Origin: Anaerolineae bacterium
GTDB lineage: Bacteria; Chloroflexota; Anaerolineae; B4-G1; SLSP01
Length of the DNA: 64,000 bases
Reading direction: 5' to 3'
Assembly (NCBI GenBank): GCA_016931185.1
Contig: JAFGFI010000143.1
Span: 5,987-69,986, forward strand
The notes below the pieces were generated by a model. That model saw only the letters and a program-made list of their open reading frames with translations. It was not told where the DNA came from and ran no database searches. Position numbers and translations under genes: made by a program. Every line of letters begins with the position of its first letter. Positions within the stretch are counted from its first letter, which is position 1. Shown piece by piece: positions 15,325-24,218 of this stretch.

Positions 15325-18300
15325 ATGGATAATCCACTCCTAGAACAAGCTGTCGAATCCGCCCGGCTTGGTTTCCGCGAGCAGGCGCGTTCTCTCCTGC
15401 TCAAGGCTGTCCGCCAGGATCAAGCAAATCCGCTATGTTGGCTGTGGTTGGCTTACGTTTTAGATGATAAGAAGCAGCAATATGACTGCTTGCGCCGGGC
15501 ATTGCGGATTGAACCAGATAATCCAGATGCTCTGTTAGCGATGGAGGCTCTCAAGTCCGGACAGCCCTTGCCGGAACCCGGTGCGTATGAGGAACCTGAG
15601 GAGGAGCTTTGGGGCCCGGATGTGCTTTCGCGTTTGTATTCCGATGTGGAAGAGGCCGGTGAGGTTTCTTCTGCGCAATCTGAATCTCCTTATGTTGAGA
15701 TTGCTTATGATCAAGAGGCCCTGTATACGGATGTTTCCGCTGAGGAATCTCCCGATGTGGACCGTCTTGATATTGCGCCGCCTGTTTCCTATACTGTATC
15801 AGATGTGCCAGAATCAGAGAGCGTTGCCCCCTCTTGGGATACAGGCCTTTATGTTGAAGAGCCTGAAATCCCTATAGCTGAATCCTCCACAGCGTTTGAG
15901 TTTGCTCCATCTCCTACTGAGACCTCTCCTCGTCGCAATTTGTTTATTGATCGAGCGCGAACAGCGCGCTCACAGCCGATTACTGTGTCTTCGTTGCCGG
16001 TGACCCGTGATGAAATGCCGGTATCTGCCGATGTTACGTGGGCAGAGCCGGGGGAGATTATGGCTCAGCCCGTCAAGAAGGCATCTTTCGTTGCTTCCGG
16101 GTTGGGATTGATCGGGAGATTGCTGCCGGGAAAGAAAATAAGGCCGGATGTGTCTGAGAAGGAAGCTGCTATTTCTATCCCTACATCTGGGCAGTCTTTG
16201 TCGAGAAAACGCAAGTTCAAGTTTCTTGATTGGCGTGTCCTCTTTGGTTTGCTCGGGATTGTGGATGTGCCCATTATCGCGGTTTTGCTTATTCTGTTGT
16301 TCTTGCGTGCGAAACCTGATCCCCGGTCGGCGGCAGTTTTCCAATCACAACCTGAGTACCAGGGATGCCAGCAGGTGGATCTCGCGTTGTTTACCGTGGT
16401 AACAGATACTGCGACTATTATGGCGAATGAGGAAATAACGGATGTTCTTGTTCGTTTCGATACTGTACTTAGTGGTACGCTTTTTTCATTTGCACATTCC
16501 CTGGTTGTGCCAGAAGGGCGGCGCTTGTTGATATTACCCGGTACAACGCTGTCTTTTGTCGAGGGTACGGCCTTAGAGGTTTATGGCACGCTCTATGCAT
16601 GTGGCACAGATGAGATTCCGATCACGTTTGTGGCGAAGACACGCGCGCCGGGGGGATGGGAAGGAGTGCGTTTCCATCATGCGGTGACGCCTTCAATGCT
16701 TAGCAATGTGTTGATCCAGTATGCAGGTGAGCGCGCGCTGTACCTGGAGGATACGCTCCCTGCCCTGTCAAATGTACGTATTGCTGATGGCAGTGGTTTT
16801 GCCATCAGTGCGGATGCGGCTGCGCTCCCCCATTTAACTCCAGATATGGATCTTACCGATAATCCACTTCAGGGTATTGAAATTCGACCCAGTACGCTGC
16901 CTACAGGAACTGTGGTCTGGTATGACCAGCAAGTGGTTTATGTCGTGACTGGCTTGATACGGGTGGGGGAGGATACGACATTGGAAATCCAACCGGGGGT
17001 GATCATTAAGTTCTGGCACCGGCCCCGCGGACAGGTCCCCGGGGTATGGGTGCGGGGATTGATCAAGGCGGAACAGGTGAAGTTGACCTCGATATACGAC
17101 AGCCGGGAAGAAGTTGGCGGGGTGACGTACCTGGAAGCGCGTGACCCCCAGGCTGGAGATTGGGGTAGTATTACATTCCACAATAGTAGCGCGAAGTCCT
17201 ATCTGCGCGATGTGATGCTTTCCTACGCCGGACAGAATAAGGCCGCCATCTGGATGCAGGCAAGTTCTCCTGAATTAACAAATGTGGCTATCACGAATGC
17301 GGCCTGGTATCCTTTGAGTGTGGGTACGGAAGCGGACCCTGTATTAGAGTCCCTGACATTGATGGATAATGTGCCTGGTGATGTATTGGAGATTCGTAGA
17401 GGTTCAGAGATCGGGGGCAGGAATGTGTATACGTGGACGCAATTGGGGACGGCGGAAGCTCCGATAGTGCGCTTGGTACGTGGCCCGTTGACGATCGGTC
17501 CAGAGGCTAAACTTACCATTATGCCTGGTGTCATTGTTAAGTTTGAACCTGAGGGGAAATTTATTGTACACGGTACACTCCACGCAGTTGGGGGAGGCAG
17601 TAAATCGCAATACATTGTCTTTACCTCATTTCACGATGATGAGTATGGGGGCGACTCAGACCAGGGAGACAGCCCGCAGGATGTCCGCGCGTGGGGGGGG
17701 ATTGTGTTAGATGGGGTAGATGTAACGACGGACATGCAAAATTGCACGGTGCGCTATGCTCCCCTTTCATTGCTGGCTGCGTCACCCAAATTGATCAATA
17801 ACCGGTTTTTCGATAGTCCCGAAGCCGGATTGATTATGACACCTGATTCTTTGCCGGAGATGCGGGGAACGCAACTTGAGGGAAATGGTGTGGGGGGCAT
17901 CGCTTTGTTGTCAGGGGAAATTACGACCGATCAACAGTGGCGCCGCCTGGGTATTGGGGATGATCAGATTGTGCGCGTGTTGCAAGGCCCGGTGACGGTC
18001 ACAATAAGTGCGACGTTGAATATTGAGTCTGGCACGATTATCAAGGCCATGCCGGAGGGTCAATTGGTAGTGTTAGGGGGATTGCGGTCTGTGGGTACTA
18101 TTGATCAGGTCATCGTCTTCACATCGTTGCACGATGATAGTGCCGGTGGAGATACCAATGCGCGGCTGACGATGCCTGCTGCCGGGGATTGGCCTGGCAT
18201 TGAGATTGGGCCGGAGGCTAACGCACGTTTGGAAAATACGGCCATTTATTATGCCCAGAATGGCCTGATCGTGCGCGCGGGAAATATGCCTGTTTCTGAA

Positions 18301-18423
18301 GTAGGACGGCTGTACATTGCCGATGGGGTACGAGCTGTGTGGTGTGATGTTCGAATGCAGATTCCTGAGACGTTTTTAATTGAGCGAAACGAGATTGATA
18401 CAGCGCGTTGCCCGTCGCAATAA
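15325..18423 (+). CDS. membrane-anchored protein: N-terminal TPR, acidic disordered linker, one TM helix, four parallel-beta-helix-like repeats
   Basis: TPR-like residues 1-80. D/E/S/P-rich residues about 85-200. TM WRVLFGLLGIVDVPIIAVLLILLFL (about nt 16231-16302). Four ~100-130-aa modules of pattern PG(V/T)I(I/V)KF...G.L.A.G......I.FTS..DD..GGD....P..GDW.GI between nt 16522 and 18309. Confidence 0.8.
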   Translation: MDNPLLEQAVESARLGFREQARSLLLKAVRQDQANPLCWLWLAYVLDDKKQQYDCLRRALRIEPDNPDALLAMEALKSGQPLPEPGAYEEPEEELWGPDVLSRLYSDVEEAGEVSSAQSESPYVEIAYDQEALYTDVSAEESPDVDRLDIAPPVSYTVSDVPESESVAPSWDTGLYVEEPEIPIAESSTAFEFAPSPTETSPRRNLFIDRARTARSQPITVSSLPVTRDEMPVSADVTWAEPGEIMAQPVKKASFVASGLGLIGRLLPGKKIRPDVSEKEAAISIPTSGQSLSRKRKFKFLDWRVLFGLLGIVDVPIIAVLLILLFLRAKPDPRSAAVFQSQPEYQGCQQVDLALFTVVTDTATIMANEEITDVLVRFDTVLSGTLFSFAHSLVVPEGRRLLILPGTTLSFVEGTALEVYGTLYACGTDEIPITFVAKTRAPGGWEGVRFHHAVTPSMLSNVLIQYAGERALYLEDTLPALSNVRIADGSGFAISADAAALPHLTPDMDLTDNPLQGIEIRPSTLPTGTVVWYDQQVVYVVTGLIRVGEDTTLEIQPGVIIKFWHRPRGQVPGVWVRGLIKAEQVKLTSIYDSREEVGGVTYLEARDPQAGDWGSITFHNSSAKSYLRDVMLSYAGQNKAAIWMQASSPELTNVAITNAAWYPLSVGTEADPVLESLTLMDNVPGDVLEIRRGSEIGGRNVYTWTQLGTAEAPIVRLVRGPLTIGPEAKLTIMPGVIVKFEPEGKFIVHGTLHAVGGGSKSQYIVFTSFHDDEYGGDSDQGDSPQDVRAWGGIVLDGVDVTTDMQNCTVRYAPLSLLAASPKLINNRFFDSPEAGLIMTPDSLPEMRGTQLEGNGVGGIALLSGEITTDQQWRRLGIGDDQIVRVLQGPVTVTISATLNIESGTIIKAMPEGQLVVLGGLRSVGTIDQVIVFTSLHDDSAGGDTNARLTMPAAGDWPGIEIGPEANARLENTAIYYAQNGLIVRAGNMPVSEVGRLYIADGVRAVWCDVRMQIPETFLIERNEIDTARCPSQ

Positions 18424-19898: not shown

Positions 19899-22601
19899 CT
19901 ATGCTGTGAACCATCGTCGAATGAGTTCTACTTGAAAGCGATACCCATCTTCAACCTGTTCGATTAATTCACGTTGGATAAGTGCGTTAAGTGCTGCGGT
20001 TATATTTTTAGTATTGAGGGAACTGAGTGTTGTCAGGTTGGCGGCTATACCCTCTCCCTGGGATGCCACTATGCGCAGGATGGACAATCCTGCTTTATCT
20101 ACCTGGTTGCGTTCGATGTCTGCAAAGAAGAAACTGCCCCGGCTTAGTGCTTCCGGGATAGCCGCTTCTACATCTTCCATGCGCGCCAGCCGGCGCAGCG
20201 CGGGAGGCTGGTCATTTTTGAGGGTGACGATTTCTGAACAGAGCAATTGTATCAGGGCCGGATGTCCGTGGGTGAGAGCTACGATTCGTGAGACCGCGTC
20301 CGGTTCATAGCGTAAGGGAAAACCCTTGATAGGATGTTCGATAAGTTGGCGGGTTTCGTCTTCTTTTAAGTAGCCGATGTGAATGACCTGGATATTGATC
20401 AGGTATGAGGCCCAACGCTGGAAAGCCTCCAGAGTGTGTGACCCGGCTAACAACACTTTGAAGTGTGGTCGATGTTGGATCAGATGGCGCAACATGCCCA
20501 GGATAGCTTCTTCTTCAAAGTGTCCATTGGCCATAACATTCTCCAAGACTTCAAATTCATCCAACGCGAGTAACGCGGTTGCTTGTCCTAGTGTGGCTTC
20601 AATTTGGTCCAGCCATTCATCAAAGTATGTGAAGGGATCTCGTGCTAATGTCTCACGTGATAATGGGGGAAATGTAAGTCCTCGTTGTCGCTCGGCAGAG
20701 AGACTCATACCGCGCGCGAGATTATAGCAAAATCCGGCGTAGTCACTGGCTTGTGATGCTGGCCCTTGTAAATCTACGAAGAGCGGGACGATGGTGCTAG
20801 GAAGTAGGCGTCCCAGGTTATTCAGCAGCGAGGTTTTCCCCATCCGGCGTTGTCCATAAAGCAATAAAGGCGGGCGGCGGCGGTCTAGTAGAAGTTGCTC
20901 GACACGCGCGCTGATATCAGTGCGTCCGACGAAGATTTCTTGTTGCGCAGTCAAGGGCATCCCAATAATGTAGGGATTATCAATTTCCTGACGTTGTTCC
21001 ACCGTTTCTGTAAGTGCGTGAATGTGATGAGTGACCATTTGTCGCCATTGTACGACAATGGGGTGAAACCGTGTTGCGTAACGCTCATTACTTCGGGTGA
21101 GTTCGCGCTGTAGGCCATCCAATTTCTCCTCAATCGCATACAGGGCTAATCGTTGATTGTAGATGCTTTCCTGGTGGATGGCCGCTTCTATATCTTGGCT
21201 GAGACGGCTAAAACTGCGCAGGAGCGCGCTGACAGGGCCATTTAACGTTCCGGCAGCCAATCGCTGGTGGACATTGCTTAATGTTTCGAGTGTAGTACAC
21301 TGAGACAGCGTGCGGGCGTCAAGTTCGATTTGCGCAGCTTGGGCGGCCCAGCGTTGAGGGCTTTCGGTGAGGAATGTCATAGCGGCCTGTCCCTCGCCGG
21401 ATGCATGTTCTAGAACGTGGATGAGATAGTTCTCCAGGCCATATAGTGGTAGTCGCTGGTGTTCGTCCCAAAAGGCAGAGTGCCAGCGCAGGTGTGGCGT
21501 ATAGGAGGGGGACATTGGGTTTTCATCGGTTTTGTACAGCAGGAAATCCCAGGCGGCTGTGAATGGGTAGAGGAGAATAGGTCGCCACCAGTTGATGGTC
21601 AATCCCAAGATAACGCCCAGCGCGCCTAGTGGGAACAAAGGCCAGAGAGATGCTTCAGGGGAGACAGTTATCAGAACAGCCAACCACCCTCCACCACCTA
21701 GTGCGCCTGCTACTGTGCCAGCCCAGTCGGGTACGATGAGCCGGACGACGGCATAAGGTAAGGTACAGAGGATGCTGAAGATGGCGCCTTCGGCCCAACT
21801 GTAACTTACACTCTCGGATATGGTTTGTAGTAAGGTGAAGATAACCCCGCTGGTGAGACCATAGAGTAGTCCGTAGCCTATGCCACGCTGCCAACTGCGC
21901 GTTCGCAATCCACACGCGATGCTGATAGCGATGCTTTCCATAACACTAAAGGTTACACCGTAAACTACACTGGTGGCGATGAGGATGGCAAGTCCGAAGG
22001 CGAAACCACTGCTAATGACACCAATAACAACTCCGCCGACTTGCCGAGTGAGTGAGTAGGTGGGCGACCGCCGTTCGCCACTTTCTAACATACCAAAAGC
22101 TAGTCCCACGGCGATACTTAGTGCCATCCCTTCTATAACTGGGTCGAGTGCAAGCCCGACGGCGAGACCTGTTGTGAGACCAGCGAGCAAGCCAATCGCC
22201 AGGTTGGCAGCAAGCCCGGTGGCGGTGCCAATCGCAATGCCAAACGCGGCCCCCTCCGCGATACAAGAAAGAATATGTAGATCGCTGTTGCGCCCATTTT
22301 GCCCTGATAACCATAGCCCTAACCCAATGCTCGCGCAAATCCAGAGCGGCCAGATGCCATATCCGATAAGGAGCAGCCGTCGTAAGATCGGATGTTGCCA
22401 ATGGCCGCGGTGTAACTCGGCCAGGCAGAAGTCAGGAGAGAGTGTGTCGCCTTCAATGTTGATACGGGCGATGTGGTGTCGCCAGGCCGAGGGATGCAAA
22501 AAGAGCCAGACTAGCAACTGTAAACTGCCCGGTAGTAAGTGTCGGGATAACTCCGGGGCGTGCGTATAAGCGTTCTTTACGCTACTATTCTTAACTCGCA
22601 A
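19899..22601 (-). CDS. polytopic glycine-zipper membrane domain fused to a helical linker, a P-loop ATPase (AAA_16/ATPase_2-like) and a C-terminal winged-helix-like domain
   Basis: N-terminal ~350 aa has many hydrophobic spans rich in GxxxG/AxxxG (GAAFGIAIGTATGLAANLAIGLLAGLTTGLAVGLA). FVGRTD...LLLYGQRRMGKTSLL (Walker A), LLALDEFE (Walker B). C-terminus ALIQRELIEQVEDGYRFQVELIRRWF. TTG start 3 nt after the upstream stop. Confidence 0.8.
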   Translation of the reverse strand: MRVKNSSVKNAYTHAPELSRHLLPGSLQLLVWLFLHPSAWRHHIARINIEGDTLSPDFCLAELHRGHWQHPILRRLLLIGYGIWPLWICASIGLGLWLSGQNGRNSDLHILSCIAEGAAFGIAIGTATGLAANLAIGLLAGLTTGLAVGLALDPVIEGMALSIAVGLAFGMLESGERRSPTYSLTRQVGGVVIGVISSGFAFGLAILIATSVVYGVTFSVMESIAISIACGLRTRSWQRGIGYGLLYGLTSGVIFTLLQTISESVSYSWAEGAIFSILCTLPYAVVRLIVPDWAGTVAGALGGGGWLAVLITVSPEASLWPLFPLGALGVILGLTINWWRPILLYPFTAAWDFLLYKTDENPMSPSYTPHLRWHSAFWDEHQRLPLYGLENYLIHVLEHASGEGQAAMTFLTESPQRWAAQAAQIELDARTLSQCTTLETLSNVHQRLAAGTLNGPVSALLRSFSRLSQDIEAAIHQESIYNQRLALYAIEEKLDGLQRELTRSNERYATRFHPIVVQWRQMVTHHIHALTETVEQRQEIDNPYIIGMPLTAQQEIFVGRTDISARVEQLLLDRRRPPLLLYGQRRMGKTSLLNNLGRLLPSTIVPLFVDLQGPASQASDYAGFCYNLARGMSLSAERQRGLTFPPLSRETLARDPFTYFDEWLDQIEATLGQATALLALDEFEVLENVMANGHFEEEAILGMLRHLIQHRPHFKVLLAGSHTLEAFQRWASYLINIQVIHIGYLKEDETRQLIEHPIKGFPLRYEPDAVSRIVALTHGHPALIQLLCSEIVTLKNDQPPALRRLARMEDVEAAIPEALSRGSFFFADIERNQVDKAGLSILRIVASQGEGIAANLTTLSSLNTKNITAALNALIQRELIEQVEDGYRFQVELIRRWFTA

Positions 22602-22604
22602 CTC

Positions 22605-23759
22605 CTAACTCCTAAAAGCCTCGATCTGCCATAATCCTTCTTCCTTCCATGCATTGCTGGTGTTACCTTCTTCCAATGCAGTGAGGCGCACTTGACAAAG
22701 AATTTGGAGGAGGCAGGGCCAACACTCGCTTGTTTTTATGATCCACGTGACATCATCAGAGGAAAATGGCCGGGGAGAACTGGCGATCAGTTCGCGAGCG
22801 CTGGCTTCGGGAAATGGCCCTAAGGATAGAGTGTGGAAGATATTGAAGAAGGGCGAGGGCTTGCCATAATGATCGGCCAGGGACATGGGGTGTTCATGCG
22901 CGGTAATGAGGAAGGCCAGATTGCCGGTGGCATAAGTGCTGACCAGGGAACGCAGACTCCACCAGAACGGCTCATCCAGTTCGGGAGAAGCTAGGCCGGC
23001 TCCGATCTCGTCCATCAAGATTACAGTTGGATTTTGTAAATGACGACTGACGATGTCCATAAAGGCATCCAGGGTACATGGAGTGGGGATAGGATAATTG
23101 AGTTGGCTTAGAAGATAATGTAGCAATCGTTCGCGCTCTTGCATTCGTGCGTCCTGGAAATCGACCAATACCCACCGGTACTGTTCTGGATGTGGAAGCC
23201 AATCATGACACTGATTGGGACGTAGTTCTGTTGCAGGCGTTCGTGTAATGGCATAAACTTGGTGTAGGAGGGAAGTCTTACCACTACGCTTGGGACCGAT
23301 GACGGCTACATGTTGCATTGGGAATCGTCGCCACAGGTCGAAGATGCGACGTAACTCGCGTTCGCGGTTAAAGAACTGATGCGGCAATGTAATAGGGGGA
23401 CCGGCAACGAAGGGACTGAATTCATGCCACTGTGTCTTAAGCCTGGCTGCTTCGCGCCCAATTGCGCGGGGTAATTGCGAAAGCACGGATTTAGGATGAG
23501 GATGATTGCCGTGTTGTAAAAACTGCTCGCACTCTATCAGATTCAACCCGCCGCGTTGTGCAAGGGTTTGGGTGAGTGTTGTCAAATCTACTATTTCCGC
23601 CGGGATGTGGCCTTTACGCCAATATTCAATGCAGGATCCCCCCTCTCGTCCCAGCATATAGCCCAGTTCGTCCTGCACCCCGGCGATAGTTTTATGCTCG
23701 CGGGCAGCGATAGTGCGCACAGCAGTAGTAAGCAGGTCTGCGAAACGTGATTTACTCAT
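22605..23759 (-). CDS. XRE-like HTH domain fused to a P-loop ATPase (paralogous to the ATPase of the downstream gene)
   Basis: N-terminus KTIAGVQDELGYMLGREGGSCIEYWRKGHIP resembles an XRE HTH. FFNRERELRRI...VAVIGPKRSGKTSLL (Walker A), VILMDEIG (Walker B). Confidence 0.8.
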   Translation of the reverse strand: MSKSRFADLLTTAVRTIAAREHKTIAGVQDELGYMLGREGGSCIEYWRKGHIPAEIVDLTTLTQTLAQRGGLNLIECEQFLQHGNHPHPKSVLSQLPRAIGREAARLKTQWHEFSPFVAGPPITLPHQFFNRERELRRIFDLWRRFPMQHVAVIGPKRSGKTSLLHQVYAITRTPATELRPNQCHDWLPHPEQYRWVLVDFQDARMQERERLLHYLLSQLNYPIPTPCTLDAFMDIVSRHLQNPTVILMDEIGAGLASPELDEPFWWSLRSLVSTYATGNLAFLITAHEHPMSLADHYGKPSPFFNIFHTLSLGPFPEASARELIASSPRPFSSDDVTWIIKTSECWPCLLQILCQVRLTALEEGNTSNAWKEEGLWQIEAFRS

Positions 23760-23883
23760 ATATCTCCGGAAAGTTAGGCTGCCTGGAAAGTCTGTCCTAC
23801 TTCGAAAAGCCGGACTGCACCTCGGAGTGAAACTTCTGACTCCGAAGTGTTACGTTGTTCTACAATAAGGTTGACTTGAGATG

Positions 23884-23912
23884 ATTATATGAGGGTTTGT
23901 GGATTTTCGCAA
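23884..23912 (-). promoter_or_regulatory. candidate sigma70-type promoter for the HTH-ATPase operon
   Basis: On the minus strand: TTGCGA (23912-23907), 17 nt spacer, TATAAT (23889-23884). This leaves a ~117-nt leader containing a 7-bp hairpin (tcggagt/actccga, about 23822-23846). Confidence 0.35.
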
Positions 23913-23937: not shown

Positions 23938-24150
23938 ATGGTGAAATGGATTCGTGAATGGTTTACCCTATCGGTATTGGTACTCTTGAGTTTCTGCCTG
24001 GTTATACTGTTTTGGGCGACCTGGCCGCTGTTATCCAGTCGTCTGCTGGCCCTTCCCGGTCTGGTTCTGAACCAGGAAGCTATCACTGCGATTGCGATGT
24101 TGTTTTTCATTGTAATTGGATACATAAAGTTGTTATGTGGTAAGAATTGA
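23938..24150 (+). CDS. small (70 aa) two-TM membrane protein
   Basis: ATG 23938 lies 6 nt after a perfect AAGGAGG. Two hydrophobic helices. Followed by the terminator at 24181. No recognisable family. Confidence 0.45.
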   Translation: MVKWIREWFTLSVLVLLSFCLVILFWATWPLLSSRLLALPGLVLNQEAITAIAMLFFIVIGYIKLLCGKN

Positions 24151-24180: not shown

Positions 24181-24218
24181 AATGAGCAAGGTTCAAAAGC
24201 CTTGCTCATTTGTGTTTC
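24181..24218 (+). terminator. intrinsic terminator
   Basis: Stem aatgagcaagg/ccttgctcatt with an 8-nt loop, followed by TGTGTTT. Confidence 0.55.

Follow-up and report, generated by a model that had tools for sequence, protein, structure and literature searches.

In every domain of life, NTPases of the STAND/NLR type act as central switches in immunity and signalling. Leipe et al. in 2004 are said to have defined the class by a P-loop NTPase, a helical lid with a GxP motif, a winged helix and a fused C-terminal repeat or sensor region. Those bacterial STANDs for which we found a description each consist of one soluble protein that carries its sensor at the C-terminus. A 2026 survey recognises 589 STAND clades, 198 of them classed as defence-associated, and lists transcriptional regulators among the non-defence STANDs, citing papers on MalT, GutR and AfsR (PMC13581612); in the regulator IniR the ATPase was modelled on SSO1545 and is accompanied by a MalT-like sensor domain (PMC5760070). 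Here we describe two adjacent genes, referred to as gene 1 and gene 2, in a 64,000-nucleotide stretch of an Anaerolineae bacterium contig (JAFGFI010000143.1, positions 5,987 to 69,986; hereafter the window), which encode a pair of STAND-type NTPases that differs from this plan in that the candidate sensor is membrane-embedded and has no ligand-binding repeats, while the output lies on a co-evolving paralogue.

We interpret the pair, with a probability of about 0.42, as an intramembrane-sensing paired-STAND signalling switch whose output in the window is transcriptional. The nearest characterised relatives in logic are the STAND transcription factors MalT, IniR, AfsR (a large SARP) and GutR, and like them the gene 1 orthologues join an SSO1545/2qen-like NTPase to a DNA-binding domain, those of the SARP type having the same order as AfsR, with a SARP winged helix-turn-helix (HTH) followed by BTAD and NTPase. 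Unlike these regulators, gene 1 has neither a sensor (TPR or MalT domain III) nor a winged helix, and the sensor or scaffold of the pair is a separate, membrane-embedded paralogue with a glycine zipper of ten transmembrane (TM) helices; moreover, the gene 1 output is interchangeable with TIR and kinase domains, and the DNA-binding domain of the window protein is putative. No description of the pair was found in the literature on nSTAND1, on membrane or paired bacterial STANDs, on SSO1545/MNS, or on glycine zippers combined with STANDs. The two proteins belong to a large unannotated family, a STAND NTPase switch with an unusual phyletic pattern.

The open reading frame (ORF) list confirms the coordinates given in a preliminary description of the window, which had reported two minus-strand genes of 384 and 900 amino acids (aa) separated by 3 nucleotides (nt; 22602-22604), and all of the motifs quoted there are present in the translations (IEYWRKGHIP, FFNRERELRRI, GPKRSGKTSLL, VILMDEIG, FVGRTD, GQRRMGKTSLL, LLALDEFE and the C-terminal GYRFQVELIRRWF). 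The last codons of gene 1 hold two AGGAG Shine-Dalgarno-like motifs directly 5' of the TTG start of gene 2, and translational coupling of the two genes is therefore likely. At E ≤ 1e-3 there are 1312 relatives of gene 1 and at least 845 of gene 2, and the best 120 of each are ~50-70% identical and mostly full-length (51-66% identity for the best 120 of the 1312 gene 1 relatives), so we regard both ORFs as genuine genes and not chance occurrences. The relatives of both come mostly from Chloroflexota/Anaerolineae metagenome-assembled genomes (MAGs), and their source names are just 'ATP-binding protein' or 'hypothetical protein'.

The preliminary description had assigned the same type of ATPase to both genes, and profile comparison with hhalign bears this out: the two NTPases are paralogous, aligning over 230 columns that take in the pre-Walker motif, Walker A, Walker B and the lid motif (probability 96.9%, E 1.4e-10). 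Both proteins have the Walker A (GxxxxGK[ST]) and Walker B (hhhhD[DE]) signatures of STANDs. These read GPKRSGKTS and ILMDE in gene 1, with G155, G160, K161, S163 and D250 invariant and E251 present in at least 90% of sequences, and GQRRMGKTS and LALDE in gene 2, where they follow a pre-Walker motif PYIIG.PLT..QEIFVGR and where G583, G588, K589, T590, D681 and E682 are invariant in the family alignments. Gene 2 also has the lid and winged helix of the STAND definition. Its GxP-type lid motif is GHP at aa 779-781 (H780 invariant, G and P each in at least 90%), and a terminal winged helix, anticipated earlier as a wHTH-like C-terminus, is modelled at aa 836-899 as three helices, a beta-hairpin (880-889) and a last helix. 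Gene 1 corresponds to the definition in part, since it has the lid (CWP in the window, RWP in the family consensus) and ends after it, with no winged helix in the AlphaFold model and no TM segment. A C-terminal repeat or sensor region (TPR, WD40 or LRR) was not found on either protein by Pfam or AlphaFold, both ending at or just after the NTPase module, and neither has the Avs-type layout mentioned in the preliminary description.

Assignment to a STAND/AAA_16-like group, also proposed beforehand, agrees with both profile and structural searches. Gene 2 passes the Pfam thresholds of nSTAND1 (PF20703; 33.5 bits vs 27.1, aa 552-887) and AAA_22 (33.5 bits vs 27) and remains below those of ATPase_2 (19.8 bits vs 33.2), AAA_16 and NACHT. 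Gene 1 is below threshold for ATPase_2 (29.8 bits vs 33.2), AAA_16 (28.1 bits) and nSTAND1 (13.3 bits), and sub-threshold nSTAND1 matches are also present in 76 of 87 gene 1 family members. Neither family profile has a relative of solved structure detectable by sequence. Foldseek searches with the gene 2 model list, for its C-terminal 350 aa, first 2qen (E 6.5e-7, TMt 0.67) and 2fna/SSO1545 (E 1.2e-5), then RuvB, ORC and plant NLR resistosomes, with the 2qen, 2fna and ORC alignments extending over 376-416 columns; the gene 1 model likewise has 2qen first (E 1.5e-6), then archaeal Cdc6/ORC, NRC3 and Avs3. The archaeal ATPase_2 proteins (PABY2304/2qen and SSO1545/2fna) are thus the best structural matches of both NTPases, and gene 2 shares their order of NTPase, lid and winged helix. 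Unlike the present pair, however, they are soluble, stand-alone proteins without TM, linker or output domains, and the Pfam ATPase_2 scores are sub-threshold for both window proteins.

What distinguishes gene 2 is confined to its membrane-embedded bundle and a conserved linker. The AlphaFold model, built with 113 homologues (mean per-residue confidence, pLDDT, 88; predicted template-modelling score, pTM, 0.71), has ten long helices at high pLDDT in aa 71-343, joined by very short loops, and hydropathy gives ~8 hydrophobic spans in aa 75-345. Across the family the mean number of lysines and arginines is 4.5 in the predicted inner loops and 2.1 in the outer loops, with acidic residues biased in the opposite direction; by the positive-inside rule this fits a predicted topology of ten TM helices with both termini inside and no extracytoplasmic domain. 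The hydrophobic glycine-zipper region reported in the preliminary description is likewise borne out: the density of [GAS]xxx[GAS]xxx[GAS] in the TM region of 113 sequences is 0.118, against 0.055 (sd 0.019) in shuffled sequences, so that the periodicity is real and goes beyond composition, and in the window protein aa 80-350 contain 15 GxxxG and 52 [GAS]xxx[GAS] motifs. Glycine-zipper channel-forming segments were reportedly characterised by Kim et al. in 2005 as TM helices with a repeated GxxxGxxxG-type periodicity. TM helices inserted within the NTPase, as in the KAP type, were not seen in gene 2, with the TM region at aa 71-343 and the NTPase at 546-830, and there is no KAP Pfam match.

The bundle is preceded by a conserved cytoplasmic segment with the motif YT.AP...LGSLQLL.WLF.HPSAWR.H.ARI...L.PDFCLAEL, in which W32, A39, L54 and F58 are invariant in two alignments, and is followed by the helical linker of ~200 aa that had been noted earlier and that the AlphaFold model places at aa 344-545 (motifs LRWHSAFWDE, QRWAAQAAQIELDAR and ALLRSFSR.SQD). 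The Pfam scan gave no match in aa 1-550, the linker has no match in either Pfam or the PDB, the TM domain matches no transporter-like family in Pfam or structure-profile searches, and the top 50 Foldseek matches of the whole gene 2 model are all to the NTPase, with none to the TM/linker region. Gene 2 thus has neither an enzymatic effector nor a C-terminal sensor domain detectable by Pfam or AlphaFold. The model falls below a pLDDT of 50 solely at aa 547-561 and 585-588 (window ~20838-20963), the first being the pre-Walker motif, which hardly varies in the family, and the second the P-loop, and this is consistent with segments that would become ordered only upon nucleotide binding or at a subunit interface.

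Gene 1 is soluble, and its AlphaFold model (pLDDT 88.3) consists of a helical region at aa 3-95, a disordered linker at 99-115 and the ATPase with its lid at ~116-384. The helical region includes a helix-loop-helix at aa 25-48. It had been described as an XRE-like HTH, which is borne out only in part: the core aligns in register with a small XRE/Cro profile (QDELGY.LGREGGS.IEYWRKG vs QTELA.K.G..QQ.I...E.G), in a match that is not significant, as set out below. The Thiotrichaceae-type gene 1 N-terminus, which differs in sequence, matches this profile along the entire domain (probability 84%, E 7e-6). When gene 1 is compared by Foldseek with the PDB and with viral libraries, ATPase matches dominate and the result is uninformative on the HTH; by Pfam the window protein has no OmpR-like winged helix and no BTAD. 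Its N-terminal domain is a small, HTH-like and probably DNA-binding domain.

This domain is replaced by others in orthologous loci. Among 49 adjacent gene 1-gene 2 pairs, a SARP winged helix with BTAD is present in 26 (BTAD E 2.5e-21 to 1.9e-27) and an XRE-like domain in 14, the latter in three sequence subtypes recognised with hhalign (the window type not significant, the Thiotrichaceae type at probability 84%). A TIR_2 domain is found at locus L005 (E 3.8e-25), a Ser/Thr kinase at L006 (E 6e-57) and a TCAD9 kinase-like domain at L002 (E 6.5e-34), and the remaining six have no detected domain or are truncated, many being cut by contig ends. Most of the fusions are to transcription-factor domains. 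An orthologue at L009, on the opposite strand and outside the 49-pair set, combines a Ser/Thr kinase with a C-terminal LuxR HTH. Throughout this exchange of N-terminal domains the gene 1 ATPase stays 50-65% identical. The gene 2 architecture is constant: aa 1-545 are matched by 443 representative clusters (50% identity) at E ≤ 0.001, and most of the 150 listed representatives are ~900-960 aa. Because the N-terminal domain of gene 1 is swapped whereas the gene 2 architecture does not change, the comparison points to gene 1 as the carrier of the output and gene 2 as a constant sensor or scaffold. It also undercuts the earlier argument in which the membrane domain was taken as the sole obvious output. 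At four loci with an XRE-type gene 1 there is an adjoining stand-alone SARP gene (Trans_reg_C and BTAD), divergently oriented in three of them.

Essentially the only other architecture among the 150 representatives is P0351 (1540 aa), in which aa 5-355 correspond to the N-terminal segment and TM bundle of gene 2, whereas the other ~1185 aa are unrelated and mostly helical, with weak TPR matches only and no P-loop; this single example may be a true variant architecture or else a chimera of the assembly.

In a scan of 185,579 species genomes (one genome per species), relatives of gene 2 are encoded at 496 places, and the counts of synteny, neighbours and taxa given here refer to the best 80 of these 496 loci. 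The 80 loci lie in Chloroflexota (Anaerolineae, Ardenticatenaceae, Promineifilaceae, Caldilineaceae and Thermoflexales), in six Nostoc/Microcoleus genomes and in seventeen Thioploca, Thiomargarita, Beggiatoa-like or Marithrix genomes, all of which we take to be filamentous or chain-forming bacteria. The idea of an uncharacterised family concentrated in multicellular (filamentous) bacteria thus holds for these loci, for which the names supplied by the sources are uninformative. Identity to the window gene 2 protein is highest in the ATPase domain (65-73% across taxon groups and phyla), followed by the lid (61-67% by taxon group), the linker (39-63% by taxon group) and the N-terminal segment (aa 1-70; 37-49% across phyla), and is lowest in the TM region (25-32% by taxon group, over 239-335 aa). 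The filamentous character of the loci and the cross-phylum conservation of the ATPase together suggest that the function is tied to filamentous or multicellular life. A housekeeping gene of Anaerolineae was rejected on account of the patchy distribution, the presence of several copies in some genomes and the three-phylum span.

The pairing itself is conserved. A gene 1 homologue lies directly upstream of gene 2 on the same strand in ~60 of the 80 loci, in three phyla, so that the pair is syntenic across genomes; in 49 cleanly called pairs the gap between the two is usually -11 to +90 nt. No further neighbour is universal, and the neighbours vary by lineage. Pairwise identities of the gene 1 ATPase and of gene 2 are correlated (r = 0.86 over 946 locus pairs), and the nearest neighbour is the same for both genes in 22 of 44 loci, where ~1 is expected by chance. 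One MAG contains three paralogous pairs; at L004 and L020 both genes have the same nearest locus, whereas at L006 they do not. As judged from these sequence comparisons, gene 1 and gene 2 co-diversify as a pair.

A second, highly divergent two-gene layout occurs ~5 kb downstream of the orthologous pair at L037 (10844-13863, plus strand). Its first gene encodes a 387-aa nSTAND2-like ATPase with a C-terminal TM anchor and no DNA-binding domain, and its second, incomplete because the contig stops there, a fusion of membrane domain and ATPase whose (GVAF)n glycine zipper is extremely repetitive. Because of this divergent copy, the design of the pair may be older than the orthologous group described here.

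Under the signalling interpretation, an intramembrane cue such as membrane damage, lipid state or membrane potential would reach the TM bundle of gene 2 and alter the nucleotide state or conformation of its NTPase, which would then co-assemble with the paralogous NTPase of gene 1. The N-terminal domains of gene 1 would thereby be clustered (or released) and transcription switched, the likely targets being the operon's own promoter and the divergent gene for a small membrane protein. The signal would have to be intramembrane because the TM helices are joined by short loops only and no extracytoplasmic domain is present that could bind a soluble ligand. This model, in our view the most economical, accommodates the SARP, XRE, LuxR, kinase and TIR variants through a single logic of induced proximity; the SARP and XRE versions should then have regulons, and the TIR and kinase versions should share an activating membrane partner. 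If this model is true, membrane state is linked to transcription through a new class of receptor. Besides the swapped gene 1 domains, the constant gene 2, the paralogy, co-diversification and synteny of the pair, its topology and its fold relatives, the regulatory DNA upstream of gene 1 and the lack of a defence context speak for the model. Several observations weigh against it. Even with a cut-off of E ≤ 10, the Pfam HTH models match none of 87 members of the gene 1 family, and the hhalign match of the window-type N-terminus to the XRE profile is not significant (probability 2%, E 0.022, 21 columns). Within gene 2, conservation is lowest in the TM region, which is unexpected for a sensor of a specific ligand, although it would fit a sensor of bulk membrane properties. 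At ~10 loci with adequate flanks, mostly in Thiotrichaceae, gene 2 has no adjacent gene 1, and the gene 1-like ATPase of the second L037 pair has no DNA-binding domain. Finally, the TIR and TCAD9 domains on some gene 1 orthologues are typical of conflict systems, and the occurrence in multicellular bacteria, with cross-phylum transfer and several copies per genome, is the pattern described for NTP-dependent conflict systems (PMC7159879).

A related reading, doubtful in our estimation, would make the pair a prokaryotic counterpart of sensor-helper NLR pairs, in which gene 2 senses membrane damage or state and nucleates the assembly of gene 1, as a horizontally spread form of membrane-integrity surveillance; the gene 1 response would be transcriptional where it carries HTH or SARP domains and would involve TIR or kinase activity in other lineages. 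NAIP-NLRC4 and the plant sensor NLR-NRC helper pairs similarly split input and output between paralogous, co-evolving NOD-type NTPases, a likeness in logic only, and the present pair differs from them in being prokaryotic, in having an integral-membrane putative sensor and in having mostly transcription-factor domains as output. It is unlikely, we consider, that the pair is instead an abortive-infection or conflict system, in which ATP-driven oligomerisation of the gene 2 NTPase would assemble the zipper helices into a pore that depolarises the infected cell of a filament and kills it, with gene 1 as regulator, co-sensor or second effector; if true, this would be a new abortive-infection effector. 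The nSTAND1 clade, whose threshold gene 2 passes, was defined in conflict systems (PMC8195603), and the pair resembles the NTP-dependent conflict systems of Kaur, Burroughs, Iyer and Aravind (2020, 2021) in its occurrence in filamentous Chloroflexota, cyanobacteria and Beggiatoaceae and in the variable N-termini of gene 1 (TIR, kinase, TCAD9, with TIR and TCAD9 being rare). The TM domain sits at the N-terminal 'effector' position of STAND proteins, the zipper periodicity is twice the chance level and reaches an extreme in the paralogue at L037, some loci have VapBC or PIN genes close by, and the multicellular hosts in three phyla, the cross-phylum transfer and the presence of up to three copies per MAG match the pattern given in PMC7159879. 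The pair nevertheless has no variable sensor at the C-terminus or elsewhere, in particular none of the hypervariable C-terminal sensors (FGE, TPR or WD40) or EAD adaptor domains of conflict systems, and most of its loci have no enzymatic effector; a search by term of the nSTAND1 and conflict-system papers found no description of a ten-TM architecture or of a paralogous pair. With Avs and other bacterial NLR-like STANDs it shares the NTPase-lid-winged-helix core and an N-terminal non-NTPase domain, and Avs3 and plant NLRs are among the Foldseek matches, but it is a two-gene paralogous pair and not a single polypeptide, and it has neither a defence-island context nor a significant PADLOC match. 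Antiviral STAND NTPase domains generally diverge much more between distant taxa, and the NTPase of gene 2, with 65-73% identity across phyla, is far more conserved than such a protein would lead one to expect. The TM domain is moreover modelled confidently as a stable ten-helix monomeric bundle and not as a latent amphipathic pore-former, the gene 1 fusions are mostly to transcription-factor domains, and there is neither a significant PADLOC match nor an enrichment of defence genes among 139 flanking genes, the window neighbours being housekeeping genes; copies in phages, viruses or plasmids are absent bar one weak partial plasmid match.

MalK sequesters MalT, and by analogy contacts between the two NTPases might allow the resting gene 2 protein to tether gene 1 to the membrane, with its DNA-binding domain away from the chromosome, until a membrane signal or nucleotide hydrolysis releases it. 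The paralogy, topology, output-domain and co-diversification evidence applies here as it does to the signalling switch, and an external inhibitor is plausible given that gene 1 has no winged helix, the element that normally locks STANDs off. PMC13581612 refers to MalT as being negatively regulated in the maltose system of E. coli. We nonetheless think sequestration quite unlikely, since TIR and kinase outputs usually need induced proximity and not release, and a role limited to holding gene 1 would hardly account for the loci that have gene 2 alone. More improbable still is an ATP-driven membrane machine of the filamentous life-style, for instance a channel or a factor for envelope or pilus assembly, in which gene 2 would perform mechanical or transport work and gene 1 would be a lineage-specific adaptor or regulator. 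The very high, housekeeping-like conservation of NTPase and linker across phyla speaks for such a machine, as do a divergent TadE-like/CARDB surface-protein operon kept at ~25 Ardenticatenales-type loci, a GluR0-like channel gene directly downstream of gene 2 at three Thiotrichaceae loci lacking gene 1, and MurJ upstream at L044. But 496 places in 185,579 species genomes indicate an accessory and not a core function, the neighbours change between lineages, the TM domain matches no transporter-like family in the Pfam and structure-profile searches, and the folds nearest to the NTPases (2qen, 2fna and ORC) are those of switch-type and not translocating ATPases.

Table 1. Features of the gene pair and its upstream region; positions are those of the window.
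Feature	Position	Strand	Description and basis
Gene 2	19899-22601	minus	900 aa, TTG start (ORF list)
Gene 2 NTPase module	19899-20966	minus	aa 546-900; Pfam, alignments, hhalign, AlphaFold
Gene 2 juxtamembrane and helical linker domain	20967-21572	minus	aa 344-545, ~200 aa, highly conserved
Gene 2 ten-TM Gly/Ala-zipper bundle (predicted)	21573-22391	minus	aa 71-343; hydropathy, AlphaFold, topology
Gene 2 cytoplasmic N-terminal segment	22392-22601	minus	aa 1-70, conserved (alignments)
Gene 1	22605-23759	minus	384 aa, ATG start (ORF list)
Gene 1 N-terminal domain	23475-23759	minus	aa 1-95, six helices, HTH-like core QDELGYMLGREGGSCIEYWRKG
Inverted repeat	23818-23849	.	11-nt, TCGGAG..N12..CTCCGA core; gene 1 leader, downstream of promoter
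Sigma-70-like promoter	23884-23912	minus	TTGCGA-17-TATAAT, upstream of gene 1
Divergent two-TM protein gene	23938-24150	plus	70 aa; ORF list, hydropathy
Terminator-like hairpin	24181-24210		strong, 13 pairs and T run, after two-TM gene

The promoter-like sequence upstream of gene 1 (Table 1) is retained at the two closest loci, L081 and L001, with both hexamers and their spacing kept (TTGCSA-17-TATAAT). The inverted repeat in the gene 1 leader is unique in the 64-kb window, with 0.07 occurrences expected by chance, and at L081 and L001 the promoter is also followed by inverted repeats with related CTCCGA/TCGGAG half-sites; the repeat may serve as an operator for autoregulation or form a hairpin in the leader. 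The small divergent gene, whose membership in the module had been left undecided, has homologues of 36-42% identity in the same divergent position at L081 and L001. It is kept only in these three closest loci (the window's, L081 and L001) and was therefore rejected as a universal part of the module; it is possibly a regulated target or an accessory.

The remaining neighbours in the window are metabolic or housekeeping genes (glutamate dehydrogenase, a rhamnosidase-like protein, a response regulator, GH130 and an aminoacyl-tRNA synthetase), in accord with the earlier remark that no enzymatic effector is encoded nearby. Membership of a known defence system was rejected, as the PADLOC matches are only at the level of the P-loop (best E 0.0011 for gene 1 and 0.0042 for gene 2), and neither protein has a match in NCBIfam. 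Nor does the pair appear to lie in defence islands, a check that the preliminary description had proposed: PADLOC applied to 139 non-redundant flanking genes from the 80 loci gave scattered single matches, many of them to generic helicase or E1-like models, and no recurrent system, although this is a weak test that used PADLOC and not DefenseFinder and had no formal background rate. No copies of the pair were found in phage records or viral contigs, and the single plasmid match, from Burkholderia, covers 24% of the query at 28% identity.

Also in the window, at 15325-18423 on the plus strand, is a gene for a 1032-aa protein with an N-terminal TPR-like segment, a TM helix and right-handed beta-helix-like repeats, without a Pfam match at E ≤ 1e-5. 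Other loci have neighbours of their own. At the ~25 Ardenticatenales/Promineifilaceae-type loci, the operon divergent from the SARP-type gene 1 consists of four genes (e.g. L023:711-6144, minus strand), coding for a 693-aa protein with TadE and CARDB, a protein of 439 aa that has BNR-like SxDxGxxW motifs, a 239-aa TM protein and a second TadE-like protein (430 aa); in these lineages the operon is a candidate for regulation by the pair. The GluR0-like ligand-gated channel genes (SBP_bac_3 and Lig_chan) of the three Thiotrichaceae loci are at L057:10049-11161, L061:8073-9182 and L073:5191-6312 (plus strand), and at L062 a PAS-GAF histidine kinase gene intervenes between the two genes. A DUF5995 gene on the opposite strand lies between gene 1 and gene 2 at L008:6669-7796, L015:6905-7876 and L048:6688-7746 (minus strand). 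At L015 and L048 a stand-alone SARP gene (Trans_reg_C and BTAD) is divergent from gene 1.

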